From NCBI GenBank assembly GCA_028714495.1, contig JAQTMH010000001.1, forward strand, positions 73,721 through 137,720: 64,000 nt of DNA, in the 5' to 3' direction. This DNA comes from Patescibacteria group bacterium. GTDB lineage: Bacteria; Patescibacteriota; Patescibacteriia; JAHIZJ01. The notes under the pieces are model-generated. The model did no database searches. It saw nothing but the letters and a program-made list of their open reading frames with translations, and was not told the DNA's origin. Of this stretch, positions 1 through 47,605 are shown in pieces. Position 1 is the stretch's first letter; each line of letters opens with the position of its first letter. A program made the position numbers and the translations under genes.

Positions 1-3000
1 TTTTTGGTGTATATGAAACTAAATTATCACCCTCGCCATAAACCGGAATGGCTTCAATCTTGATGCCGTCCTTTTCATACTGCCAAGCCCATTTCTTCGC
101 GGCTTTTTTCGTGTAGCCCGAGCTGACTAAATAGCGATTAACTGATAATAAATCTTTTTCCCGGGTCATGAACGCAACCGTGCGCAGGGGTAACCAGAGC
201 TTGCCGTTCAGACCGTTGAGCAGCAGACGGTTGCCTGCCCAGATACGAATCCCCTGTTTTTCGAGATCAGCGTAAATCTTTTTGAACGCTTGAAAGTACG
301 CATGGTCCCTTTCCGTAGCGGCTATTTCCGGCTGGTGAAAATCCGGCGAGTCTATAAATAAGTCCCGATTGTTTTTCGGATCGCAGTAGCGCAGATAATA
401 CCAGCACGAGCCAGCCCACTGGGGCATGGTATTGGTTTCACGCTTAGCTGGGCTTCCGCATTTTGGGCATTTAACATTTACCCAGTTTTTAACCTTGGCT
501 AGGGGCGATTCGCCAGTGCCAGTGGGTTTGAAATCCTTGAGCTCTGGCAATTTAACTGGTAAGTCTTCTTCCGGAACTGGCACCACGCCGTCATTCTTTG
601 ATCTCAAAACCCACTCGAGCAATTCAGGAATACGTTCAGCGGTAAAATGAGAAAAACCGTTCCAGATTTCAAAATTCCAGCTTGCGGGTATTTCATTATG
701 GGTATAGAGCGGTATTGATTTATCGTCACGGGAAACGACTATTCGAATTTGATTGGCTAATTCCGTGATTTTATTTAAATCAATCGGCGCTTTCCAGAAT
801 TTTTGCAGAGCGTCAATATCGGCTTTAAGCCAATTAGCCTGCATTTTGGTCCAGTCCCGTTTTGACAGATCAGCGATGGCTGAAGCAACCAATAAAAGGT
901 GGCCGATTTTTTTTCCAGAATTATTCAATAAATGAAGCGCGGCCTTACTACCCAGACTGTGACCGATAATAATGTCATTTTCATTAAAATCTTTTACCAA
1001 AGGCCGAAGCTCTTTTAACCATTGGTTCAAATCCGGGTGAGCCGAGGTTGTCATTGTCGGCACTCTGACTTCAAAACCGCGCTTGATTAATTCATCCTTC
1101 ATCCAAGTCATCCAATTCATCGTACCGCTACCCTCAAAACCGTGGATTATCAAAACTTTCTGCTTTACGTTCTTACATTTTTCGCAATGAACAACCGGGA
1201 TCGGCTCACCCCAATACCTCTGCCGCGAAAACACCCAGTCGCGGAGTTTGTATTGGACCATTGGTCGTCCTAGGCTCTTTTTTGCTAATTCTGATGTAAT
1301 ATTTTTACCCGCCTCAACACTATCTAAACCATCAAATCTGCCAGACTGCATCAACTTGCCAATACCAGTGAAACAATCTGAGTTCGATTTGTAAGCCTCC
1401 CACATATATTTAAACGATGACAAATTGAGCCACTCAGCCATTTTATCAGCGTTTACCCAAACCAATTTGTGATTTTTAGCGTGTTCCGCGGCCACCGGTT
1501 CCTTCTCCTCATCAATCAGTTCAAATAGCATGCCCTGGCCGATCGCGTATCGGTTTTCATCTTTGTGTGCTGCAAAGAAATGATTATGCTGTTCCAGGCC
1601 TATACTTTTTACAAACTTTAAATGCTGATAGCCGGTTTCCTCGCGTATCTCGCGCAGGGCAGCGTCTTGATAGCTTTCTCCCTTATCAACCCCGCCGATA
1701 ATGCCAGAATGCCAGCCGTATTTTTCCCAATCCAGGCAGAGAAAGGAATTCTTATTTTTGTCAAAAACAAAGGCGTAGGCGGTTTTCCTGGTTACCGTTT
1801 TTTTGTCCGATTGCACCGCGTCTTTGTCACCCGGGTTATGCGTAAAATATGGAGCGATTACTTGTCGGATCGGTAATTGATATTTTTTAGCAAACTCCCA
1901 ATCCCGCTCATCATGCGCTGGCACCGCCATAATCGCGCCAGTGCCATAACCCGTCATCACATAATCCGCCACCCAAATTGGAATTTCTTCATTATTCGCC
2001 GGGTTTATCGCTTTTATGCCTTTTAATTCAACGCCGGTTTTTTCCTTGGCCAGATCAGTCCGCTCCAAATCAGATTTTTTCGCGGCGTTATTGGTATATT
2101 TCTTTACTTCTTCGAGATTCGAGATTCGAAATTCGAAATTTTTTATCAATGGGTGCTCCGGTGCTAACACCAAATATGTTGCCCCAAAAATCGTATCCGG
2201 CCGGGTGGTAAAAACAGTGATGGCCGATTGGTTGATTGGTTGATTTATTAATTTCCGTAGAGCGTCAGTAATCGGTTGGAGCTCTTTATACTCTTCAGCC
2301 TCGCTCTCGTCATAAGGGTATTTGCCGGTAGATTTAACCTGGTAAATCGACCTCAAGGGAAAATGCCAGTCAATTTTTTCATGAACTTTATTAGTAAGAA
2401 TAACCTCACGACGCGATTCGCTTACACGTTCGGTTCCATCCGGATCTATTAAAACAAAAACATCTTTCCAGTAGGCTTCGACGCCTTTAGTGTGTTTTTT
2501 TACAATTTTCAAATAAAAATCAAGAATAGCCAGGCCGATTTGATGTTGGTTTAACGATTTCTCGTCTTGGCCTTTTAACGCATTTCGTTTCACCTGCACC
2601 GGATCGATCATCTCGCCATCAATGAACAAACCGGTATCCGTGCCTAAAATCGGCAGACCGGTTTGGCCGAAATAGGCTTTGGCCTTGCGCCGGGCATTAT
2701 CAAAAAGATCCCCGCCCTCTTCCACCTCCATCGCTGGTAATCCCGCTTCGGTCGGCGTGACAACAACGATGTCAGGAGACACTTTCGTTAAAAGCTTCCG
2801 AATACGCGCGACCTTGCTTGGATTATTCGTTGCCAGTAATATTTTAATTTCTTCATCCTTAATTTTGAATTTTGAATTTTGAATTTTGAATTCTATTTCA
2901 GCGCCTTCTGATCGGCCAATCCAATTTTTCTGCAGAAGCCTAATCGACTCCGGCCAATCCAGCTTGTCTAAACCATTGAGCAAACGATCAGCATAGGCCG

Positions 3001-3616
3001 TGATTTTTAAAAGCCACTGTTTCAATTTCTTTTTCTCCACGGTCGTATCACAGCGCTCGCACCGGCCGTTGATCACCTCTTCGTTGGCTAAACCGGTTTT
3101 GCAGGAAGGACACCAATTGATCGGCACTTCAGCCTGGTAAGCCAAGCCGCGCTCGAACAGCTTCAGAAAAATCCACTGGGTCCATTTGTAATATTCCGGC
3201 TCCGAGGTAATCACCTCGCGTGACCAGTCATACATGAAGCCCAGGCTTTTTATCTGTTTCCGAAAACGCTCAATATTTTTCCGGGTGTAGTCGCGCGGAT
3301 GGATGCCCCGCTTGATTGCCGCGTTCTCCGCCGGCAAACCGAACGAATCAAAACCCATCGGATGCAAAACGTTTTTGCCCCGCATTTTTTCCCAGCGCGC
3401 GTAAATATCAGAAGCGGTATAACCCTCTGGGTGGCCAACGTGAAGACCGTCACCCGATGGATAGGGAAACATATCAAGAATATACGCCTTTTGCTTCTGG
3501 GCGCTTTCTTCCACCTGGCCGGCTCGCGTTTTCTCCCAAATCTTCTGCCATTTGGCTTCGACTTTGTTTGGGTGGTAGCCGCCCCTGGATTTTTGCTTTT
3601 TTACCCGCCTTGCCAT
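1..3616 (-). CDS. leuS: Leucyl-tRNA synthetase, C-terminus runs off the window; contains inserted Ham1/ITPase-like, Nudix and alpha/beta serine-hydrolase domains
   Basis: Manual translation of the reverse strand from ATG at 3616 gives MARRVKKQ...MFPYPSGDGLHVGHPEGYTASDIYARW (class I HIGH motif), the Zn-finger INWCPSCKTGLANEEVINGRCERCDTTVEKK, the CP1 core TTRPDTIFGATYLVLAPEHP...GYGTGAIMAVPAHDERDWEFAKKY, LRDWVFSRQRYWGEPIP and PTGTGESPLAKVKNWVNVKCPKCGSPAKRETNTMPQWAGSCWYYLRY. The frame stays open to position 1. It is absent from the ORF track, probably because it has no stop inside the window. Confidence 0.8.
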   Translation of the reverse strand, partial: MARRVKKQKSRGGYHPNKVEAKWQKIWEKTRAGQVEESAQKQKAYILDMFPYPSGDGLHVGHPEGYTASDIYARWEKMRGKNVLHPMGFDSFGLPAENAAIKRGIHPRDYTRKNIERFRKQIKSLGFMYDWSREVITSEPEYYKWTQWIFLKLFERGLAYQAEVPINWCPSCKTGLANEEVINGRCERCDTTVEKKKLKQWLLKITAYADRLLNGLDKLDWPESIRLLQKNWIGRSEGAEIEFKIQNSKFKIKDEEIKILLATNNPSKVARIRKLLTKVSPDIVVVTPTEAGLPAMEVEEGGDLFDNARRKAKAYFGQTGLPILGTDTGLFIDGEMIDPVQVKRNALKGQDEKSLNQHQIGLAILDFYLKIVKKHTKGVEAYWKDVFVLIDPDGTERVSESRREVILTNKVHEKIDWHFPLRSIYQVKSTGKYPYDESEAEEYKELQPITDALRKLINQPINQSAITVFTTRPDTIFGATYLVLAPEHPLIKNFEFRISNLEEVKKYTNNAAKKSDLERTDLAKEKTGVELKGIKAINPANNEEIPIWVADYVMTGYGTGAIMAVPAHDERDWEFAKKYQLPIRQVIAPYFTHNPGDKDAVQSDKKTVTRKTAYAFVFDKNKNSFLCLDWEKYGWHSGIIGGVDKGESYQDAALREIREETGYQHLKFVKSIGLEQHNHFFAAHKDENRYAIGQGMLFELIDEEKEPVAAEHAKNHKLVWVNADKMAEWLNLSSFKYMWEAYKSNSDCFTGIGKLMQSGRFDGLDSVEAGKNITSELAKKSLGRPMVQYKLRDWVFSRQRYWGEPIPVVHCEKCKNVKQKVLIIHGFEGSGTMNWMTWMKDELIKRGFEVRVPTMTTSAHPDLNQWLKELRPLVKDFNENDIIIGHSLGSKAALHLLNNSGKKIGHLLLVASAIADLSKRDWTKMQANWLKADIDALQKFWKAPIDLNKITELANQIRIVVSRDDKSIPLYTHNEIPASWNFEIWNGFSHFTAERIPELLEWVLRSKNDGVVPVPEEDLPVKLPELKDFKPTGTGESPLAKVKNWVNVKCPKCGSPAKRETNTMPQWAGSCWYYLRYCDPKNNRDLFIDSPDFHQPEIAATERDHAYFQAFKKIYADLEKQGIRIWAGNRLLLNGLNGKLWLPLRTVAFMTREKDLLSVNRYLVSSGYTKKAAKKWAWQYEKDGIKIEAIPVYGEGDNLVSYTPK
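2113..2140 (-). repeat. Tandem heptanucleotide repeat (TTCGAGA x2, TTCGAAA x2) inside leuS coding sequence, translated NFEFRISNLEE
   Basis: Direct reading: ttcgagattcgagattcgaaattcgaaa. Confidence 0.85.
2224..2244 (-). repeat. Tandem octanucleotide repeat (GATTGGTT x2.5) inside leuS, translated INQPINQ
   Basis: Direct reading: gattggttgattggttgattt. Confidence 0.8.
2861..2888 (-). repeat. Tandem heptanucleotide repeat (AATTTTG x4) inside leuS at the junction with the Ham1-like insertion, translated EFKIQNSKFKI
   Basis: Direct reading: aattttgaattttgaattttgaattttg followed by aattc. Confidence 0.85.
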
Positions 3617-3938
3617 AATCAAAAAGGATTATCTGACTTTCTTTAATAAATACCTCGTTTCAATGAAATAATACCATTTTTTGGCCCTTCCGACCAATAT
3701 TTTTATGCCCCCATATTCCCCTCTTGACATTACTCTCTGTCCATGATAAAGTACTTGTTGTACCAAAAGTTCTTTTTTTTAAAACCAAAATTCTTTGCTT
3801 AAATTAGCCAATAAAACAAAATACGGCTAAATATTAGCAGGAAAGCATATCAGCCTAGAGCTAAAAAAATTCAGCCTCATCTTTCTCCGCCACACCTTAA
3901 GCGGGGCTTCTTATTTATATAAGGGAATCGCCTGGTTA

Positions 3939-5192
3939 TTGGCTAGGATCCTGGCCCGGCCGACAAAAGCCTCGGCCAAATGGATCGTGTCAAAAGTGCT
4001 GTCGCGAATTTACCTGTTTATCTATTTTCCCATCAAACGCCGACTGGGCGATAAATTTGCGCTGGCTAAAAATAAAGTTTGGTACCCCTTTGCGACAAAA
4101 TACGTCATTCATTTCTTTATCGTCCTTTTAGCCACCGGCGTTATTTTCTACAGTATCAAAACTCGGGAAGCTTCGGCTGAAGAATTTACCACCGACAGTT
4201 TGATTACGAAATTTCTGGGTGAAGATTCATCTGATATTATTACTGAAACAGCCCAGAGCGCGCCAAAGAAATCTATCAGCTATGTTGACCAGCGCGGCAT
4301 GTTCGGCGGCCAAACCCTCTCCATAAATAGCCCGACCGAAGAAGAGACCGCGGAAGAAGAAGATCTGACTTTGGCGCAAGGCAGCGGTTCGATTTTGAAA
4401 CCAAATATCCCGACTACCCAAGTAGGCGACCGGGCCCGCGAGATCGTTGAATACTACGTCGTCGAGGGCGGCGATACGGTCAGCACGATTGCTGATAAAT
4501 TTGGCGTCTCCACCAACACTATCCTTTGGGAAAACCGTTTGGGCGAAAAGGACTACATAAAACCGGGCGACAAATTGACAATTCTGCCCATGTCCGGCGT
4601 TTCACATCAAGTCAAAAAGGGCGATACGATTAAAACTCTGGCCAAGAAATACAATGTCGATGAGCAAGAAATCATTGACTATAATAAACTGGCTTCGGCT
4701 GACGCGATTTCAGTAGATGAAATTCTCATTATTCCAGGCGGTCGCGCTCCGGAAATCGTCAAACCCACCTCTACCGGAACTGGCGTCGATAAATACTTCG
4801 GTGGCACGCCGCCGCCTCCAGCCCGCGTGGCTGCCTCGGAAAAAATGCTCTGGCCCACGGCCAGTAAAAAGATTAATCAATACTTTAAATACCGTCATTC
4901 CGGCCTCGATATTGATGGCAACACTGGTTCACCGATTTACGCGGCTGAGAGCGGCCGGGTGTCTAACGTCGGCTGGGGTTCGGGTTATGGACTGCACGTG
5001 ATCATCGACCATGGCGGAGGCAAAAAAACAGTATATGCCCACTTCAGCAAGGCTTACGTGACTGCTGGCCAACAAGTCAGCAAGGGTGACTCGATTGGTC
5101 TGATGGGCTGTACGGGCTGGTGCACCGGACCCCACCTTCACTTTGAAGTGATTATCAGCGGCAAAAAAGTAAACCCATTGTCATATCTGTAA
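3939..5192 (+). CDS. Membrane-anchored LysM-LysM-M23 (LytM-type) peptidoglycan endopeptidase; start codon uncertain (TTG at 3939 or a downstream GTG)
   Basis: Two LysM-like segments (YVVEGGDTVSTIADKFGVSTNTILWENRL and HQVKKGDTIKTLAKKYNVDEQEIIDYNKL). M23 core HSGLDIDGN...GYGLHVIIDHGGG...GCTGWCTGPHLHFEV. An N-terminal TM helix. Confidence 0.85.
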   Translation: MARILARPTKASAKWIVSKVLSRIYLFIYFPIKRRLGDKFALAKNKVWYPFATKYVIHFFIVLLATGVIFYSIKTREASAEEFTTDSLITKFLGEDSSDIITETAQSAPKKSISYVDQRGMFGGQTLSINSPTEEETAEEEDLTLAQGSGSILKPNIPTTQVGDRAREIVEYYVVEGGDTVSTIADKFGVSTNTILWENRLGEKDYIKPGDKLTILPMSGVSHQVKKGDTIKTLAKKYNVDEQEIIDYNKLASADAISVDEILIIPGGRAPEIVKPTSTGTGVDKYFGGTPPPPARVAASEKMLWPTASKKINQYFKYRHSGLDIDGNTGSPIYAAESGRVSNVGWGSGYGLHVIIDHGGGKKTVYAHFSKAYVTAGQQVSKGDSIGLMGCTGWCTGPHLHFEVIISGKKVNPLSYL

Positions 5193-5217
5193 TAACAACG
5201 AGGATATAAATAATAAA

Positions 5218-5247
5218 CAGGCGAGGCTTCCCCTCGTCTGTTTTGAT
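5218..5247 (+). terminator. Rho-independent terminator after the LysM/M23 gene
   Basis: Hairpin caggcgaggcttcccctcgtctg followed by TTTTGAT. Confidence 0.55.
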
Positions 5248-5283
5248 AAAAAAAGCCCCCAACATCATTAAGTTGTCGGGGGA
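5245..5283 (-). terminator. Rho-independent terminator for the minus-strand cupin-like gene (overlaps its stop codon)
   Basis: Minus-strand hairpin ccccgacaacttaatgatgttggggg followed by CTTTTTTTATC. Confidence 0.5.
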
Positions 5284-5876
5284 TACGGACGAGAGAAATC
5301 ACGGTAGACGTAATCATCCATGCTGAGGGGATCACCGCCATTGTGATTGGTGATGGCCAGAAGATTCAGGGCTGGAGAGCCTGTGGTTTGGAGAAAGTGC
5401 CATTGTTCAGGCAGCATCACAAAACTGCAGCCGGTAGTATCATCTACCCTATCCTCTTCCTCTTGGCCCCTGGCGCAAGCTCCAGCCAGATTGTAAAACT
5501 GTTCAGTCTTGCCCGTGTGATAGTGCCACGAGGTGCGGACCCACGGCCGAATCAGCTGAAGGAGCCACCCCAGCGTTCCATCCTCGCTCTGGGCCAGATA
5601 TACCGCTCCTGAACCAGCTGAACGTGCATGTCTCGATTCTTCGAAAACCGTGAAGCCCCTGAGCGCTAGGTGAACCCAGGCTTTACCGAATGGAACTTGG
5701 ATCAGTTGGAACCCGGGGAAACATTCCCCTAGCGGGTTCTGCTCGCTTGTACAAAGAACTGATACCAGCGTTGCCTGACGCAATCTCGAATCAACGAATG
5801 AGCGGAATCGCCCGAATCGCCCATCCGGAAAGAATGCGCAGACATCCTCATTGCCGAAAAGCTTGGGTTTATCCAC
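5268..5876 (-). CDS. Hypothetical protein with a cupin-like HXH...E motif, GTG start, GC-rich
   Basis: WHYHTGKTEQFYNLAG fits cupin motif 1 (G..HXH...E). Strong RBS aaAGGAGGcaaggc immediately before the GTG start. GC visibly higher than the flanks. Confidence 0.5.
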   Translation of the reverse strand: MDKPKLFGNEDVCAFFPDGRFGRFRSFVDSRLRQATLVSVLCTSEQNPLGECFPGFQLIQVPFGKAWVHLALRGFTVFEESRHARSAGSGAVYLAQSEDGTLGWLLQLIRPWVRTSWHYHTGKTEQFYNLAGACARGQEEEDRVDDTTGCSFVMLPEQWHFLQTTGSPALNLLAITNHNGGDPLSMDDYVYRDFSRPYPPTT

Positions 5877-6089
5877 GCCTTGCCTCCTTTTTCTTGGGCA
5901 TCCGGACGACAGATTGATTCAAAATGCATAAGAATGATAATAGCCTATCCGTAAATATCTGTAAAGATCCATGATTAATCATTCTTCAGCCAAAATATCA
6001 CTCTAGAAAAGTCGATCCTTGCGTTACTTCTTGAAGTATGATATTCTCGTCTTTAGTTGTTGATAATTGTTCGTCTCGCGCCCACCCCC

Positions 6090-6110
6090 GTCCCACCACA
6101 GAAGTGGGAC
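6090..6110 (+). promoter_or_regulatory. Perfect 7-bp hairpin immediately upstream of the first leader micro-ORF
   Basis: gtcccac-cacagaa-gtgggac. Confidence 0.4.
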
Positions 6111-6150
6111 TCGACCCGAGCCATATGACAGCTAAAAGGGAGGATGCAAG

Positions 6151-6171
6151 ATGCGCAAAGTCGCTGCCTAA
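6151..6171 (+). CDS. Leader micro-ORF MRKVAA (6 codons) with a strong RBS, copy 1
   Basis: GGGAGG at 6138-6143 with a 7-nt spacer, then atgcgcaaagtcgctgcctaa. An identical micro-ORF recurs at 6411. Confidence 0.45.
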   Translation: MRKVAA

Positions 6172-6215
6172 GGCCGTGCCTTACTTTTCCGGCTCCGAAA
6201 GTAATCGGTACGGCC
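6172..6215 (+). promoter_or_regulatory. Two-tier hairpin immediately after the leader micro-ORF stop (copy 1); candidate attenuator or ribosome-sensing structure
   Basis: Outer stem ggccgtgcc/ggtacggcc and inner stem ttacttt/aaagtaa. The equivalent element in copy 2 keeps the pairing with compensatory changes. Confidence 0.5.
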
Positions 6216-6288
6216 AACTCGGAACATCACCAATCTAGGAGCTAATCTGATCGTTCCAAACCGCAAACCGACCACACAGGAGGTTCTC

Positions 6289-6375
6289 ATGCGGAGATTC
6301 CTCGGGCAGGCAATCGGGCATTCGCCGCCCGTATCCGCCATCGAGGTCGTCGACACGAGGAGCGCGACGAAGTAG
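6289..6375 (+). CDS. Small protein (28 aa) MRRFLGQAIGHSPPVSAIEVVDTRSATK, copy 1 of a duplicated family
   Basis: RBS cAGGAGGttctcATG. The C-terminal motif IEVVDTRSATK recurs in the 6550 ORF. Confidence 0.45.
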   Translation: MRRFLGQAIGHSPPVSAIEVVDTRSATK

Positions 6376-6410
6376 CGCAGGCCGCTGACCAACCAAATGG
6401 AGGTTGCTTA

Positions 6411-6431
6411 ATGCGCAAAGTCGCTGCCTAA
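6411..6431 (+). CDS. Leader micro-ORF MRKVAA, copy 2
   Basis: GGAGG at 6399-6403, then an atgcgcaaagtcgctgcctaa identical to copy 1. Confidence 0.45.
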   Translation: MRKVAA

Positions 6432-6475
6432 GGCCGTGCCCGTGCTTTTCGGACTCCAAAAGCATCGGCATGGCT
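6432..6475 (+). promoter_or_regulatory. Hairpin after leader micro-ORF copy 2, covarying with copy 1
   Basis: Outer stem ggccgtgcc/ggcatggct (G-U wobbles) and inner stem gtgctttt/aaaagcat, replacing ttacttt/aaagtaa of copy 1 (compensatory base changes). Confidence 0.5.
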
Positions 6476-6549
6476 AGCTCGCCTTCCGAACCCACAGGAG
6501 TCAGGTGTTCATTCGATTCCGCAAAACAACCAACCCTATGGAGGTTCGC

Positions 6550-6690
6550 ATGCGGGAAACAACCAGTCGGGCACATCGGCATCCACCGCCGATGTTCGCC
6601 CTCGAGGTCGTCGACACGAGGAGCGCCAAGAAGAAGGCCACCAAGAAGAAGGCCGATGTCGCTTCCGGTCTGGAGAGCGGGCTCGTCTAG
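6550..6690 (+). CDS. Small protein (46 aa) MRETTSRAHRHPPPMFALEVVDTRSAKKKATKKKADVASGLESGLV, copy 2 of the duplicated family
   Basis: RBS tGGAGGttcgcATG in the same arrangement as copy 1. Shares the LEVVDTRSAKK motif. Contains a PPP stalling-prone motif. Confidence 0.5.
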   Translation: MRETTSRAHRHPPPMFALEVVDTRSAKKKATKKKADVASGLESGLV

Positions 6691-6849
6691 GTCTATCGCC
6701 GACCGAGGAGCATAACCAGTCTCTCTACGCGCGACAAGGCGTTTCGTACATTCACCACATGGTGTTTGCACGGAACGCCTATTTTATTTGCCATCGAACC
6801 AACACGCGTGATGAGTGAAAGACTTTCTATTAGTAAATTCGCTGACGAA

Positions 6850-7000
6850 GCCTAGGGCAAATACCCGCCATAGGCCCCCTTGATTTACCTAGCTGTGGTA
6901 AGAATGAAAAATGAATGGAGTAGAAAAAACGAAAGCAAGCAGTAACCGGAGGCGGGTATGGTTTTATTTATCTTAGCCATGGTAAATACCCGCCGAGCCC
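6850..7000. repeat. Cluster of short AAATACCCGCC-type motifs in both orientations in a convergent intergenic region
   Basis: aaatacccgcc at about 6856 and 6984. Inverted copy in ggaggcgggtatggtttt at about 6947. Related aaataccc repeats occur at 34943 and 38001. Confidence 0.5.
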
Positions 7001-7043
7001 CGGTCTCTGCGCCGGGGGAGGCGGAACCTATCGAAGCCAAGGG

Positions 7044-7081
7044 CAAATAAAAAACCCACGAAGCGATTCAGCCTCGTGGGG
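7044..7081 (-). terminator. Rho-independent terminator for hutU
   Basis: Minus-strand hairpin ccccacgaggctgaatcgcttcgtggg followed by TTTTTTATTT. Confidence 0.65.
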
Positions 7082-7094
7082 TTGAAATCAAAGA

Positions 7095-8738
7095 TCATTC
7101 AGGGGGTAGCATGGGCATATCGATTCTGTGCTTGCGCACATTGGCGATTGCCTCAGGTTCACCAGAGTCAGCGTGTCGGATCAGTCCGATAGCTGGGTCA
7201 TTGGTAAAGACCCGCATTGCCCTGTCGAGACACTCCTGCGTCGGCTCGATGACGAAGCACTGACCAGCGTGGATTGACTTGCCAATCCCGACTCCGCCGC
7301 CTTGATGCACGCTCACCCAGTCAGCTCCGCCAGCCGTGGCTAGAAGCGCGTTCAGAATCGGCCAATCGGCGATCGCGTCACTGCCGTCAAGCATCCCCTC
7401 GGTCTCACGGCTGGGCGAAGCCACTGAACCACAATCCAGATGATCCCGGCCGACCCAGATCGGCGCTGAAATGTCGCCCGCATGGATTGCCGCGAATATC
7501 TGCTCCACTGCCCGATATCGCTCACCCATGCCCAGCCAGCAAACTCGGGCTGGAAGTCCGCGCAGCCGACTGAAATCAATCTGCTTCTGGGCTTTCCGAA
7601 TCCAGTTCACCAGCCGCTCGTTATCCGGGAAAAGGCTGAGAATGATTTCATCCACGACTGCGATGTCGGCTGGATTGCCAGACAAGGCCGCCACCCGAAA
7701 CGGTCCCCGGCCCTGGCAGAACAGCGGCCGGACATAGAGCGGCACAAAACCCTGGAACTCAAAGGCGCAATCCAATCCCTCACCCTTAGCCCAGAGCCGC
7801 ATGCCATTGCCGTATTCAAAGGTCGTCGCGCCCTTCCGCATCAGAAGAACCATGACCTCCACGTGTCTGGTAATCGTCCGAAGAGACCGCCGCCTGTACT
7901 CAGCCTCATCTTCTTGGCGCAGACGGTTCAACTCTATAAATGACAACCCTTGAGGGCAGTAGCAGACGGGATCATGGGCTGAAGTCTGATCAGTCAAGAA
8001 ATTCGGTACCTGGTCATGATTCAGCAAATACTCAAGCAGATCAACAGCGTTGGCCTGAACTGCTATGGCGATTGCCAGGCCTTCGGCTTTGGCTTGGAAG
8101 GCGCGTTGAACTGCTTGAGGGATGTTACCAAACACCTCATCCACCCAGCCTTCTCGCCGGCAGCGTTGGATTCTGGCTGGATTGATCTCGGCAATCAGAA
8201 TGGTCGCGCCAGTCATCTTGCCAGCCGGCGCTTGTGCTCCACCCATACTGCCAAGACCACCTGAAACAATCAGCGTGCCTGAACCAGCCCCGGCCGCAGC
8301 GAATGTCTCAAAGGTCGCTTGCATGATTCCCTGCTGGTCAATGTAAGCCCAGCTTCCAGCAGTCATCTGGCCATACATGATGAGCTCCCGAGCCTCAAGC
8401 GGCCAGAATTCCGCATCCGTGCACCACTGCGGCACCAGCATGGAGTTGACGATCAGTACCCGGGGCGCCCCTTCAAATGTCCTGAGGATGCCAACCGGCT
8501 TGCCACTCTGCACCAGCAGTGTTTCATCGGGTTTCAGCCGACGCAGGGCCTCATCAATCTTCCAGAAACTTGGCCAGTTGCGCGCGGCCTTACCCCGACC
8601 GCCATAAATGATCAGCCTATCCGGATCTGCTCCCTGCACCACATTGTTGTAGAGCATTCGAAGTGCCCCCTCAATCCCCCAAGAGGCGCAGGTTCTTTCT
8701 GTGCCGGTTATCAGTTTGACCCGATCCGCTTCACCCAT
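7095..8738 (-). CDS. hutU: Urocanate hydratase (urocanase)
   Basis: 547 aa. Sequence spans MYGQMTAGSWAYIDQQGIMQATFETF, LLVQSGKPVGILRTFEGAPRVLIVNSMLVPQW, GRDHLDCGSVASPSRETEGMLDGSDAIADWPILNALL and VSVHQGGGVGIGKS, collinear with known HutU. RBS aaAGGAGGagcATG. Confidence 0.9.
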   Translation of the reverse strand: MGEADRVKLITGTERTCASWGIEGALRMLYNNVVQGADPDRLIIYGGRGKAARNWPSFWKIDEALRRLKPDETLLVQSGKPVGILRTFEGAPRVLIVNSMLVPQWCTDAEFWPLEARELIMYGQMTAGSWAYIDQQGIMQATFETFAAAGAGSGTLIVSGGLGSMGGAQAPAGKMTGATILIAEINPARIQRCRREGWVDEVFGNIPQAVQRAFQAKAEGLAIAIAVQANAVDLLEYLLNHDQVPNFLTDQTSAHDPVCYCPQGLSFIELNRLRQEDEAEYRRRSLRTITRHVEVMVLLMRKGATTFEYGNGMRLWAKGEGLDCAFEFQGFVPLYVRPLFCQGRGPFRVAALSGNPADIAVVDEIILSLFPDNERLVNWIRKAQKQIDFSRLRGLPARVCWLGMGERYRAVEQIFAAIHAGDISAPIWVGRDHLDCGSVASPSRETEGMLDGSDAIADWPILNALLATAGGADWVSVHQGGGVGIGKSIHAGQCFVIEPTQECLDRAMRVFTNDPAIGLIRHADSGEPEAIANVRKHRIDMPMLPPE

Positions 8739-8881
8739 GGCTCCTCCTTTGCTTTCTGATATGCCCTATGTCAAAGTGCCTCCCTACCTGAAAAAAATGA
8801 TACAACGGTAATAAACATTAAGCAACATTGTATATTTTGTCAAATGTTTTATCCAATAATTTTCTCGAAATCGGTCTTCTA

Positions 8882-8910
8882 TTGACATAATCAACTGCCT
8901 ATGATAAACT
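8882..8910 (+). promoter_or_regulatory. Sigma70-like promoter for the RRM protein gene
   Basis: TTGACA, 17-nt spacer, TAAACT. Confidence 0.5.
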
Positions 8911-8957
8911 GGTTTAGCTTATCTTTTTGGGATAATCTAATGGTAACATTAGAGGCT

Positions 8958-8994
8958 AAAGGTCTCCCTAAATAAGAGAGCACTCTAATTAAGT
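8958..8994 (+). promoter_or_regulatory. Conserved 5'UTR element shared with the paralogous RRM gene at 63142
   Basis: aaaggtctccctaaataagagagcactctaattaag matches aaaggtcttcctaaagagagtgcgaattaataag in the 5'UTR of the 63142..63456 gene. Confidence 0.5.
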
Positions 8995-9005
8995 GAACAG
9001 TTACA

Positions 9006-9332
9006 ATGGCAAAAAAATTGTACGTCGGAGGTTTATCCTACGATGTTACCGACGCCCAGCTGAACGAATATTTCGCTCAGGCCGGGACCGTTGAGTCCGC
9101 CTCTGTAGTTATTGACCGAATGACCGGCCGCTCGCGCGGATTCGGCTTCGTGGAAATGGCAACGGATGGAGACGCCCAAAAGGCAATCGAAACCCTGAAT
9201 GGTCAGGAATTCGCCGGACGAACCATTACCGTCAATGAAGCTCGACCAATGTCTGACCGCCCGCGTGGCGGCGGCGGCGGTTTCGGTGGCGGACGAGGTG
9301 GTCGTGGTGGCTTTCAACGACGCGATTACTAA
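9006..9332 (+). CDS. RRM-type RNA-binding protein with a glycine/arginine-rich tail
   Basis: RNP2 LYVGGL and RNP1 RGFGFVEM. C-terminus RPRGGGGGFGGGRGGRGGFQRRDY. Confidence 0.9.
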   Translation: MAKKLYVGGLSYDVTDAQLNEYFAQAGTVESASVVIDRMTGRSRGFGFVEMATDGDAQKAIETLNGQEFAGRTITVNEARPMSDRPRGGGGGFGGGRGGRGGFQRRDY

Positions 9333-9341
9333 GCTTCTATC

Positions 9342-9378
9342 ATACGAAGTTTTACAAAAAGGCCTTCCGATGAGGGAG
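9342..9378 (+). terminator. Probable rho-independent terminator after the RRM gene
   Basis: Imperfect hairpin ggccttccgatgagggaggtc followed by TTTTTGATTAT. Confidence 0.4.
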
Positions 9379-9568
9379 GTCTTTTTGATTATCCTTAACA
9401 TTAGTCGGCAGGACGACTCGGGTTTAAAAAGATGATGAATACTCGGCCAGAGGCCTCGCGTAAGCCAGAGTGTATATTAAATATCTAAGCCGAGGCGTCC
9501 CGCCGAGGCATCACTTACCTAGGCGTCCCGCCAAGTCTTTTTAAACCAAGACGAAGACACTCTCAGGC

Positions 9569-11089
9569 TTAATTCTCCGCGGCCCGATACTGCAAGGCTT
9601 CAGCCACATGCTTGGTCTGAATCGTTTCAGCACCCTCTAAATCAGCAATCGTCCGGCTGACTTTCAGTAATCGAGTATAGGAACGGGCAGTCAATCGAAG
9701 CTGTGTCATCGCCCGGCGAAAAAGCTCGGTCGCGGCCGACTCCACCTGGCAATATTGCTTGAGCTGCTGATTGGTCATTTCAGCATTGGTAAAAATCGCT
9801 TGCCCCTGGAAACGCTTCAGCTGCGCTGCCCGCGCCCGGTTCACCCGCTCGCGGATAGCGGCTGAGGGCTCGGCTGGTCGGACTGAAATCAATTCGTCAA
9901 ATTTCACCCGGGACACGCGCAAATGCAGATCAATCCGGTCCAAAAGCGGCCCGGATATCTTTTTGTTGTATTTGGCAATCTGCCAGGGGCTGCAGGTGCA
10001 TGGCCGCTCGCGGTCGCCGGCGTATCCGCAAGGGCAGGGATTCTGCGCGGCTACCAACATAAATTTTGCCGGGAAATGCATCACGCCATTGACCCGGCTG
10101 ACCACGATCACCCCATCCTCGAGGGGCTGGCGCAGACTTTCGAGAACCGGCCTGGGAAATTCCGGAAATTCATCTAAAAACAGCACGCCGCGATGCGAGA
10201 GAGAAATTTCTCCCGGCCTGGGAATCCGGCCTCCGCCAATCAGCGAGGCGGCTGAAGCAGTGTGGTGCGGCGATCGAAACGGCCGTTGCCGGACTAAAGG
10301 CTGGTCTGGTGAAACTAGGCCGACCACACTGTAAATCCGGGTCACCTCAAGGGATTCCTCAAGTTCCATTTGGGGCAATATCGAAACTAGGGCTTTGGCT
10401 AGAAGCGTTTTGCCCGAACCCGGCGGGCCGGAAAGCAGGACATTGTGCCCGCCTGAGGCAGCGATCTCCAGGGCGCGTTTAGCCTGTTCCTGTCCTTTTA
10501 CCAGGCTGAAGTCGACCGGGTAGTCGCCCGATATTTCGCTCTGCTTAGAAGCTGTGTCTAGACTATATGGTGCGATTGCTTTAATGCCGCAGAGATGATT
10601 TATCAGCTGGTTTAAATTTTCGACCGGGAATATTTCAGCTTCCCGGATAATAGCCGCTTCAGCCGCATTACCTGATGGCAAAAATATTCTTCTCAAATGT
10701 CGGCGCTTCAATTCCTGCATGACGGAAAGAATGCCGCTTACCGGCCTCAACTCTCCCTCAAGCGATAATTCGCCAATGAAAAGAGAATTGCTGTCAACCG
10801 GTTCAAGCTGGTACGAAGCGGCTAAGACGCTAATGGCAATCGGCAAATCAAATGCCGGTCCCTCCTTCTTTATATCAGCTGGGGCGAGATTAACCGTGAC
10901 GCGCGTGGTAGGAAAACTCAAAAGGCTGTTGCGCACTGCTGAACGCACTCGTTCCCGGGCTTCCTGAACCGATGGGTCAGGCAAACCCACAATTAAAAAA
11001 TTCGGCAGTCCAGAGGCGATATCCGCCTCTACTTTTATTAGCCTAGCGTCAAGGCCGACAATCGCGGCCGAACTTGTTTTCGCGGGCAT
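9569..11089 (-). CDS. ComM/YifB-family Mg-chelatase-like AAA+ ATPase
   Basis: 506 aa with N-terminal Lon-like domain, Walker A GPPGSGKT, and the family-typical length and order. Confidence 0.85.
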   Translation of the reverse strand: MPAKTSSAAIVGLDARLIKVEADIASGLPNFLIVGLPDPSVQEARERVRSAVRNSLLSFPTTRVTVNLAPADIKKEGPAFDLPIAISVLAASYQLEPVDSNSLFIGELSLEGELRPVSGILSVMQELKRRHLRRIFLPSGNAAEAAIIREAEIFPVENLNQLINHLCGIKAIAPYSLDTASKQSEISGDYPVDFSLVKGQEQAKRALEIAASGGHNVLLSGPPGSGKTLLAKALVSILPQMELEESLEVTRIYSVVGLVSPDQPLVRQRPFRSPHHTASAASLIGGGRIPRPGEISLSHRGVLFLDEFPEFPRPVLESLRQPLEDGVIVVSRVNGVMHFPAKFMLVAAQNPCPCGYAGDRERPCTCSPWQIAKYNKKISGPLLDRIDLHLRVSRVKFDELISVRPAEPSAAIRERVNRARAAQLKRFQGQAIFTNAEMTNQQLKQYCQVESAATELFRRAMTQLRLTARSYTRLLKVSRTIADLEGAETIQTKHVAEALQYRAAEN

Positions 11090-19648: not shown

Positions 19649-19720
19649 AGCCCTCGTAGCTCAACGGATAGAGCGCCAGCCTTCTAAGCTGGTTATAGAG
19701 GTTCAATTCCTCTCGAGGGC
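19649..19720 (+). tRNA. tRNA-Arg (anticodon TCT)
   Basis: Cloverleaf folded by hand: acceptor GCCCTCG/CGAGGGC, D-stem GCTC/GAGC, anticodon stem CCAGC/GCTGG with loop CTTCTAA, T-arm AGAGG-TTCAATT-CCTCT. Discriminator A, no encoded CCA. Confidence 0.8.
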
Positions 19721-19753
19721 ACTTGAGGCGAGCGGGGCGGGTAAGCCGTAGAT

Positions 19754-30206: not shown

Positions 30207-32141
30207 TCATCGCACCACCACGCCTGCCTTTCCGAAAATCCCCCAATTGCTTTCAAACTGGGCTTTTGTCCAGGTAATCTGGCCGACGTATGGATCGTTG
30301 ATGATAAATTTGATCGGGTTGTTAGTACTGCCGACAAAACCAATGACTGTGCGCGCGTGCTCGCCCATCCAAGCGTAAATATATTTCCCGGCCGGAGTAT
30401 TCCAGGAATCTTCATACCCCCGGCCATACACGCCCCAAACCACGACGGCGTTTCCGTTTTCAATCTCCTCGGCCACCTGACTCGAGGTCCAGCCGGTAAA
30501 CGCCTGACTCGGACGCCAATGACTGGCGGCCTTGGCGATCGGCTCCCAGTAGACGCCGTAGCCGGTGGAGTTTTGCCGGCCGTTGATATCGCCAACAAAC
30601 GCGAGATAGGCATCGCCCCAGGTATTACCTTTGTGCGGCGTCTGGTCAAAACCGACATAGTTCATGATATCGTCTTCTGACACGCGTACGCCTTTATTCG
30701 CCAACGCCATTTTTATAGCCGCTGCCTCGCACGATAAGGCGCGGTCCTGCAAATCGATGGCGACGTTGAGTTTCACTGTTGACAGGGCCGTCCTGAAACT
30801 GAAACCATGGATAACCCGCGAGTTTTGGCCATAGACGCTTTGTATGCCGCTGGCCAGACGCACCTGATAGGCAGTATCAAACGGCAAGGCGCTGCTCGGC
30901 GTAAACTTCATGGTTCGTTCGTTCCAGGAAAAAGTACCAGCGATAGCTGGTTCAGTCGAAAAAGCTTTTTCAGCCGAGGCGCGATCAACCGCCTGATCAA
31001 AGGTTACCTCTATGCTGCTCCCGATAGCCACGCCGACAGCGCCGTCCGGCGGCGAATGATGAGTCGCCTTAACCGCGCCGATTGTCCGGAAGGCATACGA
31101 GACGTCGTCCGGGAAAAAACCGCCATTCGCGTTGGCCGCTCCGGCGGTGACAGTCACGCGATAATCGGTATCAAAGGCAAGCTTCTCGGATGGAACAAAG
31201 GTCGCGGTTACTCGGTCGTCAGAAAGCGACAGTGATCCCTCCGTGGCCGGGCTGACGGTAAAATGTTTCCGCAGGCTCTCGCTATCCATGGCCTCGGTAA
31301 ACGTTACCACGAATTTCTCGTCAGTGAACACTTGCTCGCCGGCCGGACTGACTGTCACAGTCTTGGGCGGCGGCGCGATCGTAAATGTTCCATGATACAT
31401 CTTCTCGGGCTCGCCCCGATAGGTGATTATTTGCGTTTGCCGGTCCCGAACGATAAACGATCGGTTGATCGTAAGCGCATAGGTCGCGCCCTGGCTGAAG
31501 GGAGATTCAGGAACAATTATATACCGATCGAGAGTTTCATTGCGCTGGACGGTATAGACAATGACCGGATCGAACACAATTTCAAACTCCGCGTAGTCGT
31601 GATTCGCTCCGGTCAGCGTGATTTCTACCTGACTCTGCGGTGAAACGCCTTTCGCTCCATCCGTCGGCGCGACACTCGAGACTTCAGGCAGCGCCTGGGT
31701 AGTAAGGGTCGTCGAATAGGTCCGTGGTTTCGCGTACCTAAACAGATCAGTAATCCCCTCAAGCGTCACGGCGTATGTCGTGCTTGGCTCAAAAACGCGG
31801 TTTGGAATGAATCGAATGGCCCGGAATAAATGGCGGTCGCCAGCAAGCGGTTCCTCAAAACTCCACTCACCGTCAAGATCCGGCGTCAGTTTCGGAACAA
31901 GGGCGCGTCGATTGATTGGCTTATCAAATCGGATGAGTATTGTTGAATCAAGAGCAACGTCCGTCGCCTCGGCCGCTGGTCTTACCAATTTTACCTTCGG
32001 TTGCCAAAGAAAAAAATAAACGGCTGCTCCAAAAATTACAAGCAGACCGACTATAGCTAATAATACTATTTTTACCAACCGTCTTGTTTTCATTTTTTTG
32101 CCTAATATAATAATTATAGCGGTTTTTTCGCGTTTTATCAA
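30207..32141 (-). CDS. Membrane-anchored protein with tandem Ig-like domains and a C-terminal peptidase-C39-like (papain-fold) domain
   Basis: N-terminal TM. Repeated approx 100-aa beta-rich modules. C-terminus RALSCEAAAIKMALANKG ... H ... with a candidate Cys/His dyad. Confidence 0.65.
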   Translation of the reverse strand: MIKREKTAIIIILGKKMKTRRLVKIVLLAIVGLLVIFGAAVYFFLWQPKVKLVRPAAEATDVALDSTILIRFDKPINRRALVPKLTPDLDGEWSFEEPLAGDRHLFRAIRFIPNRVFEPSTTYAVTLEGITDLFRYAKPRTYSTTLTTQALPEVSSVAPTDGAKGVSPQSQVEITLTGANHDYAEFEIVFDPVIVYTVQRNETLDRYIIVPESPFSQGATYALTINRSFIVRDRQTQIITYRGEPEKMYHGTFTIAPPPKTVTVSPAGEQVFTDEKFVVTFTEAMDSESLRKHFTVSPATEGSLSLSDDRVTATFVPSEKLAFDTDYRVTVTAGAANANGGFFPDDVSYAFRTIGAVKATHHSPPDGAVGVAIGSSIEVTFDQAVDRASAEKAFSTEPAIAGTFSWNERTMKFTPSSALPFDTAYQVRLASGIQSVYGQNSRVIHGFSFRTALSTVKLNVAIDLQDRALSCEAAAIKMALANKGVRVSEDDIMNYVGFDQTPHKGNTWGDAYLAFVGDINGRQNSTGYGVYWEPIAKAASHWRPSQAFTGWTSSQVAEEIENGNAVVVWGVYGRGYEDSWNTPAGKYIYAWMGEHARTVIGFVGSTNNPIKFIINDPYVGQITWTKAQFESNWGIFGKAGVVVR

Positions 32142-47536: not shown

Positions 47537-47605
47537 CTAGTGGGGCTTGCACCCACAACCACCGGTGCCACAGACCGGTGCTCTACTAATTGAGCTATAG
47601 TCACC
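47529..47605 (-). tRNA. tRNA-His (anticodon GTG) with G-1 and encoded CCA
   Basis: Minus strand G-GTGACTA TA GCTC AATTAGTA GAGC A CCGGT CTGTGGC ACCGG TGGTT GTGGG TGCAAGC CCCAC TAGTCAC C CCA. Confidence 0.8.

Follow-up and report, generated by a model that had tools for sequence, protein, structure and literature searches.

A patescibacterial leucyl-tRNA synthetase with four whole-protein modules in its loops, a probable carrier for accessory hydrolases

The 64,000-nucleotide stretch of DNA analysed here (the window) comes from a Patescibacteria group bacterium (assembly GCA_028714495.1, contig JAQTMH010000001.1, positions 73,721 to 137,720) and begins within leuS, the gene for leucyl-tRNA synthetase (LeuRS). 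Sequence comparison gives good support to the view that the product is a genuine housekeeping LeuRS which hosts four whole-protein modules, each at a solvent-exposed loop. Three of them, a Ham1-like domain with the fold of inosine triphosphate pyrophosphatases (ITPases), a Nudix hydrolase and a YdeN-type serine hydrolase, look catalytically competent, and the fourth, a nucleotidyltransferase-fold domain, looks degenerate. Together the modules add about 760 residues to the synthetase, and it is the scale and the modularity of the inserts that are striking. The interpretation we consider probable, with appreciable room for doubt, is that the housekeeping LeuRS acts as a carrier for autonomous accessory hydrolases.

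The reverse strand of the window holds one open frame from 3628 to 2, while both other reverse frames are closed. An earlier annotation made from the letters alone (the sequence-only reading) had proposed a single frame of more than 1200 residues, and the 1,209 open codons, free of frameshifts and stops, bear this out; all the peptide strings that it quoted are found in the translated product. The ATG at 3616 is the likely start, in agreement with the database protein P0001, and residue numbers are counted from it. P0001 is the full-length product (1,554 residues, 100% identity), encoded on a contig of 343,867 bp and named 'MAG: non-canonical purine NTP pyrophosphatase [Patescibacteria group bacterium]' at NCBI; the frame exceeds the left window edge, and the C-terminal 349 residues lie outside the window. 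Seven Pfam families score above their curated cutoffs in the window product, two of which are overlapping class-I synthetase models. tRNA-synt_1 covers residues 22–232 (E 1e-32) and the LeuRS editing domain PF13603 residues 463–593 (E 2e-57), and the truncated 1,205-residue product already reaches 736.3 bits with the NCBIfam model leuS_bact TIGR00396 (cutoff 548.4) in four separate stretches. Ham1p_like, NUDIX and Ser_hydrolase likewise pass the curated Pfam cutoffs, so that the inserted segments are not ordinary sequence of the connective polypeptide 1 (CP1) editing domain.

An alignment with the LeuRS of Thermus thermophilus resolves into collinear blocks with sharp junctions at the inserts (Table 1), and it breaks at the very junctions that the sequence-only reading had named. 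The insertion sites are called A to D here, in the order of the protein. Beyond YLRYCDPKN, LeuRS sequence resumes only at WQPVDLYVGGAEHA (residue 1278) in the full-length protein, with KMSKS at residues 1333–1337 of P0001, beyond the window, and an anticodon-binding domain, PF08264. Judging from these features the protein is a complete bacterial-type LeuRS, with HIGH, KMSKS, ZN-1 and editing motifs intact; since the core, the editing site and both signature motifs are preserved, it should still charge tRNA-Leu. Three inserted domains had been claimed, and all three are in frame, but a fourth insert, at residues 1083–1274, had been overlooked. An intein nature of the inserts was considered and rejected, as a Pfam scan at E<=1 returned no Hint or intein family and the Cys/Ser...His-Asn junction residues are lacking; the module junctions read K/N...D:G, I...S:A and similar.

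Module 1 lies directly after GRSEGAEIEF, where a Ham1-like domain had been predicted, and the assignment is borne out by the alignment break and by the Pfam score (Ham1p_like PF01725, residues 259–458, 39.2 bits against a cutoff of 22.5, profile positions 1–185 of 186). The N-terminal catalytic motifs LLATNNPSKV, E..NA..KA and TDTGL are kept. A profile of 11 LeuRS-embedded copies matches Coxiella HAM1 (3tqu, 5e-10) and E. coli YggV/RdgB (1k7k); its alignment to ITPases in the PDB covers only the N-terminal ~100 residues, including T-x-N-x-x-K, the metal-binding Glu, N-A-x-x-K-A and the Asp of DDSGL, and the C-terminal half cannot be aligned by sequence. Invariant residues in the Ham1-like clade are N13, K16, E48, N55, K59 and D75, and the catalytic motifs are preserved throughout 12 Ham1 copies in LeuRS. 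An AlphaFold2 (AF2) model of the module, with a mean predicted local distance difference test score (pLDDT) of 91.4, is matched over its whole length by Foldseek to Ham1/RdgB/ITPA structures, with template modelling (TM) scores of 0.70–0.76 (4bnq, 3tqu, 1k7k). By motif and model, then, module 1 has the ITPase fold and catalytic core; specificity for inosine or xanthosine triphosphate (ITP/XTP) would be a tentative assignment at best, because the C-terminal half is unalignable to RdgB and the RdgB equivalog models score far below cutoff (TIGR00042, 27.5 against 145.35 bits; NF011397, 28.1 against 234). Both linkers of the module are encoded by tandem repeats of 7- and 8-nt units (window 2861–2888 and 2222–2249), four copies of AATTTTG giving KIQNSKFKIK and GATTGGTT units giving INQPINQ, and the repeats coincide with the patches (residues 226–285 and 481–525) that diverge most from P0002, a 91%-identical ortholog discussed below.

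The Ham1-like family also exists as free-standing proteins of about 203 residues, 38–57% identical to module 1 (the closest six 53–57%) at a coverage of 98–100%; they begin with M-x-x-ILLAT and finish with ...AL--LLG, an end-to-end match to the module. In 14 species-representative assemblies, metagenome-assembled genomes covered by a pattern-based scan, the family was embedded at LeuRS site A in five and free-standing in nine, and no assembly had both. In 8 of the 12 loci with a free-standing gene, leuS follows it directly on the same strand, at gaps from 45 bp to 2.3 kb. Seven of these eight belong to one clade with a Peptidase_S66 – Ham1-like – leuS cluster. The eighth is on contig L015, labelled Candidatus Pacearchaeota (DPANN archaea), where the Ham1-like gene (3875–4627) runs up to, or into, the start of an archaeal-type leuS (4578–7364; TIGR00395, 831 bits). 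In L004, L006, L008, L100 and L101 the Peptidase_S66 gene (LdcA/MccF family) precedes the free-standing Ham1-like gene by about 900 bp on the same strand. Embedded and free-standing copies interleave in a rough neighbour-joining tree (the method of all our trees), which points to several transitions between the two states, always at the same loop. From the conserved leuS neighbourhood, the link between the Ham1-like family and LeuRS would be older than the fusion. The association, by insertion as well as by neighbourhood and including archaeal-type LeuRS, argues for some functional link, and suggests that the Ham1-like module may remove nucleotide species that are relevant to the adenylation reaction.

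A Nudix domain in the distal part of CP1 had been proposed from the letters as well, and module 2 is exactly that, with NUDIX PF00293 at residues 610–726 (44.7 bits against a cutoff of 21.1) and a break of the T. thermophilus alignment at residues 588/753. Here the CP1 editing domain is the host of a Nudix domain. Across 99 LeuRS-embedded copies the Nudix box is conserved together with a private signature, FFA-HK--NR. The best profile matches of this clade are Ap4A (diadenosine tetraphosphate) hydrolases (1f3y, E 1e-7 and around the box only; 3i7u) and RppH models, and it meets no curated Nudix subfamily cutoff, the best RppH models giving 21–26 bits against 116–118. No free-standing copy of the clade occurs in the ~600 kb of related loci that were fetched, a survey that included no dedicated search for free relatives.

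Module 3 follows VVHCEKCK in frame, as the sequence-only reading had it, but it measures 195 residues and not about 180, and it lies outside CP1, in a CxxC zinc knuckle: it sits exactly between C442 and G443 of T. thermophilus LeuRS, at the tip of the HCExC knuckle. Ser_hydrolase PF06821 matches residues 821–985 (61.9 bits against a cutoff of 22), and the PDB entry 1uxo, Bacillus subtilis YdeN, matches at E 3.2e-12. The oxyanion HG (LIIHGFEG), the nucleophile motif GHSLG (window 947..964), the Asp (SRDDKSIP) and the His (GFSHF) are all present, and oxyanion HG and Ser-Asp-His triad are conserved in 49 LeuRS-embedded hydrolase copies. A free-standing protein of 188 residues matches the module end to end. 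In a metagenome scan 32 relatives were found in LeuRS, 12 free-standing and none in other hosts; the free-standing genes have heterogeneous neighbours and no linkage to leuS. At locus L016 a free-standing relative (6001–6567) shares 4 bp with a D-aminoacyl-tRNA deacylase (DTD) gene (5570–6004), whose stop it overlaps. A link between the esterase and DTD was not upheld as a general feature, being confined to this locus and absent at at least 12 other free-standing loci.

Module 4 lies ahead of the second Rossmann half of the synthetase, and its relatives amount to three clusters among 1.84 billion representative proteins, all of them LeuRS and all at site D. Pfam gave no significant match to the window copy, NTP_transf_5 reaching E 0.036; two of the three related clusters (P0123, P0122) keep hGS...DxD and pass PF10706, the aminoglycoside-2''-adenylyltransferase family. 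In the alignment this catalytic signature is lost from the window copy, where AGN...LRTVAF replaces it, and AGN...(R/K)T(V/I) is shared by the window copy and three others. The AF2 model (pLDDT 82, predicted TM score 0.81) is related by Foldseek, with probability 1.0, E 3.5e-8 and TM 0.63–0.70, to ANT(2'')-Ia, LnuA and TM1012 (5kqj, 4wqk, 4fo1, 2ewr). Alignment and model together characterise module 4 as a predicted nucleotidyltransferase-fold pseudo-enzyme, in all likelihood catalytically dead.

The history of the inserts can be read from P0002 (locus L001, gene 6001–10104), which has modules 1, 2 and 4 and is without the hydrolase: it reads HCEKC:GVVPIPE where the window gene has 195 additional codons. 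The presence or absence is exact in the DNA (585 bp, window 590..1174), with weak microhomology, AAAAATGT / AAGAATGA, at the edges. The locus is syntenic: LysM/M23 peptidase and urocanase genes flank leuS on one side, an arrangement shared with the window, and MFS, Sua5 and RrnaAD genes on the other, which corresponds to the region past the window edge. Between P0001 and P0002 the ratio of nonsynonymous to synonymous substitution rates (dN/dS) is 0.13 for the core, 0.082 for the Nudix domain and 0.16 for module 4; the 0.39 of the Ham1 segment is a weak estimate, dS being as low as 0.086 there, and the hydrolase has no counterpart in P0002 to be compared with. The Nudix domain and the core are under equally strong purifying selection. 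The hydrolase is 50–56% identical to site-C copies in other LeuRS whose host proteins share 53–55% identity; since it is about as diverged as its hosts, vertical descent followed by a recent and precise loss in P0002 is favoured. Its absence from so close an ortholog, along with the decay of module 4, indicates that LeuRS can function without any given one of the modules. The G+C content of the hydrolase segment is 0.41, against 0.46–0.51 in the flanking core. Borders of a transposon-like kind were looked for, and neither terminal repeats nor target-site duplications were found around any module. P0001 and P0002 diverge in a mosaic pattern that extends over the entire gene and includes hypervariable patches where the Ham1 linkers lie; this suggests recent recombination within the population. 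The Ham1 body (residues ~286–465; window 2225–2760) is near-identical in DNA, its dS of 0.086 comparing with 0.35–0.69 in the rest of the gene. As a sign of module transfer this low dS is unsupported, as a whole-gene mosaic fits ordinary recombination.

The sequence-only reading was right that the architecture departs from that of characterised LeuRS, but a search of other genomes makes it anything but a one-off: it belongs to a large family in Patescibacteria with combinatorial modules. The 120 best homologs are all LeuRS, those with a named source are all from Patescibacteria (Paceibacterota, Buchananbacteria, Taylorbacteria and others), and 113 of them contain at least one module. The modules were mapped with a hidden Markov model (HMM) of insert-free LeuRS members as a ruler and with iterative module HMMs, and they occupy some five to six recurrent loops. 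The Nudix domain was counted 89 times at site B, 4 times at site A and 6 times near core position 208; the hydrolase 17 times at site A, 7 at site B, 2–3 at ~445 and 22 at site C; the Ham1-like module at site A only (12) and module 4 at site D (3). As the sample is biased to query-like proteins, these numbers should not be taken for frequencies. Some LeuRS contain two or three Nudix copies. Further types include HAD_2 (5.5e-13), the Vsr-like endonuclease DUF559 (3e-32), another nucleotidyltransferase slightly below the cutoff (PF10706, 7.6e-4), a recurrent module of ~130 residues at site C which is tentatively and weakly ASCH-like (sub-threshold in Pfam, E 0.098), and additional modules of ~120–130 residues that have no family assignment. 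Copies cluster by insertion site, and within one protein they are 21–43% identical, which argues for old, separate insertions at each site, vertical inheritance and frequent loss; a recent intragenic duplication or hopping of modules was rejected on the same two grounds. Across the ~600 kb of related loci no module was embedded in any host except LeuRS.

The LeuRS of L049 (2312–6007) and L050 has a hydrolase at site B and in-frame TGA codons under genetic code 11, and forms a single open reading frame of 1,232 residues only under code 25 or 4; presumably it comes from a UGA-recoded lineage of the candidate phyla radiation (CPR), Gracilibacteria or Absconditabacteria, so that the recoded lineages share the module trait. 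DUF559 is embedded in frame at site A in P0082 (residues ~242–379) and in P0084 (residues ~423–575, directly behind a hydrolase module), and in L019, a locus with the same synteny as the window, a free-standing DUF559 gene (5204–5557) comes right behind a leuS that has no inserts; DUF559 might have a role in the origin of the inserts. Module-bearing LeuRS are misnamed in the databases (P0001, P0002, P0025, P0077, P0068), under names such as 'non-canonical purine NTP pyrophosphatase', 'alpha/beta fold hydrolase' and 'leucyl-tRNA synthetase/FMN phosphatase YigB'. Contigs L003, L007, L013 and L014 are labelled 'uncultured Gammaproteobacteria', and the LeuRS that they encode is of the Patescibacteria type.

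If LeuRS is indeed a carrier, its polypeptide would be a multi-enzyme in which each module folds independently, is joined by a flexible and rapidly evolving linker and performs a hydrolytic housekeeping reaction of its own, the proposed substrates being non-canonical nucleoside triphosphates (NTP), dinucleoside polyphosphates or nucleoside diphosphates linked to another moiety (NDP-X), and esters. Aminoacylation itself would need no module. An embedded copy would replace the stand-alone gene and thereby secure 1:1 co-expression and tethering to an essential, constitutively made enzyme, and the carrier would ensure the co-expression and co-localisation of housekeeping hydrolases where genomes have little regulatory capacity. 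Free-standing orthologs of the same length, the occurrence of modules either free or embedded, the differing loops and the clean loss argue that the modules are autonomous; they speak against a fixed geometric role and in favour of a carrier. The restriction of hosting to LeuRS, together with the Ham1-like/leuS neighbourhood that extends to archaeal-type LeuRS, points to more than insertion tolerance, at least for the Ham1-like family. Several observations weigh on the other side. The functions assigned to the modules are predictions from motif conservation, fold and selection, the C-terminal half of module 1 is not alignable by sequence to known ITPases and the Nudix clade falls under every curated subfamily cutoff. 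The free-standing hydrolase genes are unlinked to leuS, and for module 3 the 'carrier' may therefore amount to the host of a tolerated passenger. The count behind the mutual exclusivity of embedded and free Ham1-like copies is small (the 14 assemblies described above), the leuS-adjacent loci come mostly from one clade and thus provide about two independent observations of the neighbourhood, and the homolog sample leans toward query-like proteins. Finally, the evidence from the organism's own genome is the 64-kb window, and a second leuS or free-standing module copies may exist outside it.

A tighter relationship had been proposed in the sequence-only reading, namely that aminoacylation or editing is coupled to nucleotide house-cleaning or to the removal of mischarged products. 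The linkage of the Ham1-like family to leuS, by insertion and by neighbourhood, upholds part of this; but the hydrolase is missing from the 91% syntenic ortholog, its free relatives are not linked to leuS or tRNA-editing genes, and module 4 has lost its catalytic residues. Direct coupling to LeuRS chemistry, in which the modules act on substrates or by-products of the synthetase, strikes us as unlikely. The Nudix domain would then hydrolyse Ap4A/ApnA arising from Leu-AMP and ATP, the Ham1-like module would clear ITP/XTP or ATP analogues before they are mis-adenylated, and the esterase would remove the amino acid from mischarged or D-aminoacyl-tRNA or break down non-cognate adenylates by hydrolysis, an extra proofreading in cis. 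Several aminoacyl-tRNA synthetases (aaRS) produce Ap4A from the aminoacyl-adenylate, which counts for such a scheme, as do the Ham1-like association (fusion and neighbourhood, with bacterial- and archaeal-type LeuRS), the hosting by LeuRS alone and the seat of the Nudix domain inside the editing domain. The likeness of the latter to its nearest relatives, the Ap4A hydrolases and RppH, is however weak and mostly a matter of the Nudix box, and the single hydrolase gene overlapping a DTD stop codon, which would suit proofreading, stands against the dozen or more loci that show no such adjacency. The same module types occur at different and distant LeuRS loops across lineages, which is hard to fit to a fixed geometry; P0002, at 91% identity, is cleanly devoid of the hydrolase; and the intact CP1 editing site leaves no editing deficit to compensate.

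A broader reading, quite unlikely in our estimate, would make LeuRS the hub of an accessory-enzyme system in ultra-small-genome prokaryotes, in CPR bacteria and, by neighbourhood, in DPANN archaea. Enzymes encoded next to leuS or mounted on its loops (Ham1-like, the private Nudix clade, the YdeN-type esterase, the ANT-like nucleotidyltransferase, HAD and possibly the ASCH-like module) would intercept toxic nucleotides or adenylate-mimicking inhibitors at their target, and their combinatorial gain and loss would be driven by conflict with hosts or competitors, with a possible spread through in-frame cassettes associated with the DUF559 endonuclease.

We hold it for very unlikely that the modules serve as target-tethered protection, detoxifying synthetase inhibitors such as adenylate mimics and nucleoside antibiotics (of the agrocin-84, microcin-C or sulfamoyl-adenylate type) where they bind, with module gain and loss as an arms race in host-associated CPR bacteria. 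The patchy, fast-changing distribution and the recent clean indel would fit, the module folds (ANT(2'')/LnuA nucleotidyltransferase, serine hydrolase, Nudix, HAD) overlap with drug- and toxin-modifying ones, and an acetyltransferase fused to an aaRS, NF040702 ileS_w_GNAT, offers a precedent. MccF-type S66 enzymes hydrolyse antibiotics that mimic aminoacyl-adenylates, and MccF is the microcin-C immunity hydrolase to whose family the Peptidase_S66 gene of the Ham1-leuS cluster belongs; but the family also comprises the ordinary murein LD-carboxypeptidase LdcA. The support is circumstantial throughout. The nucleotidyltransferase of the window protein is dead yet conserved, free hydrolase copies stand in unrelated housekeeping contexts, and no inhibitor biosynthesis or immunity genes were seen near leuS.

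No better are the prospects, and if anything a little poorer, for neutral or selfish passengers, small genes captured in tolerant loops by illegitimate recombination, possibly with the help of endonuclease-like DUF559 elements, and kept since their removal must be exact. The variety of module types without common chemistry, among them DUF559 at site A and free-standing after leuS, is what one would expect of passengers, as are the decay of module 4, the clean loss in a close relative and the hypervariable tandem-repeat linkers. Passengers, however, would hardly show selection equal to that on the core, as the Nudix domain does, catalytic motifs conserved in about 100 copies, or a dN/dS of 0.16 for a dead nucleotidyltransferase. 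In the ~600 kb of related loci LeuRS is the only host, the Ham1-like/leuS neighbourhood either preceded the fusion or arose in parallel with it, and the terminal repeats and target-site duplications of mobile elements were not found. An artefact, that is, separate genes fused by an assembly chimera or sequencing error in a metagenome-assembled genome whose NCBI product name hints at automated confusion, is next to impossible in view of four independent in-frame junctions at conserved LeuRS positions, a single frame with the others closed, the same architecture and synteny in an independent assembly at 91% identity, and dozens to hundreds of related architectures from NCBI, JGI, ENA and Logan.

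The rest of the window was surveyed for its gene content. A LysM/M23 peptidase gene (3939–5192, +) is divergent from leuS and is followed by a reading frame of 202 residues (5268–5876, -), for whose 203-residue counterpart at the ortholog locus L001 no Pfam family is recorded, and by a complete urocanase (7095–8738, -), a histidine-degradation enzyme that one would not expect of a CPR bacterium with a reduced genome. Two very large proteins with FG-GAP and NHL repeats, predicted to lie at the surface, are encoded at 35026–37854 (-, 942 residues) and 58975–62028 (-, 1,017 residues), and a Big_5/Peptidase_C39-like protein at 30207–32141; these proteins may act at the cell surface or in host interaction. 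The only RNA genes in the 64 kb at Rfam gathering thresholds are tRNA-Arg(TCT) (19650–19722, +) and tRNA-His(GTG) (47529–47604, -).

Table 1. Features of the leuS product in the window (Tth, T. thermophilus LeuRS numbering)
Feature	Position	Strand	Residues	Details
leuS 5' part	2..3616	(-)	1-1205 of 1,554	3,615 nt of the 4,665-nt gene
Catalytic core, N-terminal part	2861..3616	(-)	1-252	ends GRSEGAEIEF; block 1, residues 14-252 = Tth 4-243
HIGH motif HVGH	3431..3442	(-)	59-62	
ZN-1 cysteines CPSC / CERC	3101..3112 / 3050..3061	(-)		
Module 1, Ham1/ITPase-fold, NTP-pyrophosphatase-like	2225..2860	(-)	253-464	site A, hairpin at CP1 start
CP1 editing domain, first part	1853..2224	(-)	465-588	PF13603; block 2 = Tth 242-363
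T-rich motif TTRPDT	2192..2209	(-)	470-475	
Editing-site motif GTGAIMAVPAHDERD	1901..1945	(-)	558-572	contains AHDERD, catalytic Asp
Module 2, Nudix hydrolase	1361..1852	(-)	589-752	site B, inside CP1 editing domain; replaces 17-residue loop Tth 364-380
Nudix box GGVDKGESYQDAALREIREETGY	1628..1696	(-)		intact, fits GX5EX7REUXEEXGU
Clade signature FFAAHKDENR	1550..1579	(-)		downstream of Nudix box
Editing-domain end and return to core	1175..1360	(-)	753-814	ends at zinc-knuckle HCEKC; block 3 = Tth 381-442
Module 3, YdeN/RBBP9-type alpha/beta serine hydrolase	590..1174	(-)	815-1009	site C
LeuRS core	371..589	(-)	1010-1082	GVVPVPEEDLPV..., second zinc knuckle CPKCG, ...YLRYCDPKN; block 4, residues 1010-1087 = Tth 443-521
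Module 4, ANT(2'')/LnuA-fold minimal nucleotidyltransferase	2..370	(-)	1083-1274	site D; first 123 of ~192 residues
Rest of module 4, KMSKS-bearing second Rossmann half, anticodon-binding and C-terminal domains				outside window

Few enzymes are as conserved and as thoroughly studied as the aaRS, and the architecture of bacterial LeuRS has been treated as fixed. Here an entire bacterial radiation appears to mount whole enzymes on LeuRS as a scaffold, with as many as four in one protein and some even nested within the editing domain. The occupied sites map out at least five LeuRS loops that naturally tolerate insertions and could be used in protein engineering, and a systematic mis-annotation of module-bearing LeuRS is exposed. 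The presence or absence of the hydrolase in 91% orthologs is a clean system for the gain and loss of domain insertions, and the Ham1-like/leuS linkage is a testable lead from nucleotide-pool sanitation to leucylation in nucleotide-scavenging organisms. Accessory domains of synthetases and domain insertion as such were known already, and the proteins are in public databases under inconsistent names; full-text searches of the literature turned up no account of a LeuRS with inserted Nudix, Ham1, hydrolase or nucleotidyltransferase domains. In a survey of domain insertions from 2026 the LeuRS editing domain figures as insertion-only and never as a host (PMC13114784); the Nudix domain in CP1 is at odds with that listing, and challenges the view of CP1 as a pure 'insert' domain.

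Each of the modules has its closest counterpart in a known protein. Module 1 shares the ITPase fold and the N-terminal catalytic motifs with RdgB/ITPA and differs in its C-terminal half; the free-standing Ham1-like proteins of Patescibacteria (P0124–P0135, for instance a 'non-canonical purine NTP pyrophosphatase' of Ca. Uhrbacteria) have the same length, whereas module 1 is embedded. Module 2 has the intact Nudix box of the Ap4A hydrolases and RppH (1F3Y, 3I7U), from which it is set apart by its own signature, its location in the LeuRS editing domain and its sub-cutoff scores. Module 3 agrees with B. subtilis YdeN and human RBBP9 (PF06821; 1UXO) in family, size and triad but is inserted in the LeuRS zinc knuckle, and module 4 has the fold of ANT(2'')-Ia, LnuA and TM1012 without the G-S and D-x-D catalytic residues. 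Like inteins, the inserts are large, in frame, at conserved sites of an essential protein and patchy in distribution, with clean presence and absence; unlike inteins they have neither Hint domain nor junction residues and, being ordinary enzymes with free-standing orthologs, are presumably retained in the mature protein. With canonical bacterial LeuRS (T. thermophilus 1H3N/2V0C; E. coli 4AQ7) the window protein shares the collinear core, ZN-1, the T-rich and Asp motifs of CP1, HIGH, KMSKS and the anticodon-binding and C-terminal domains, and it departs from them by its ~760 extra residues in four enzyme-sized modules, one of them nested in CP1. Eukaryotic aaRS carry GST, WHEP and EMAPII appendages, and the IleRS-GNAT fusion (NF040702) and the INS editing domain of ProRS are likewise cases of an essential synthetase that bears extra functional domains. 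Unlike these, with one fixed terminal or editing domain, the window LeuRS contains several internal inserts of whole metabolic hydrolases known as free-standing proteins, which are combinatorial among close relatives and occupy alternative loops.

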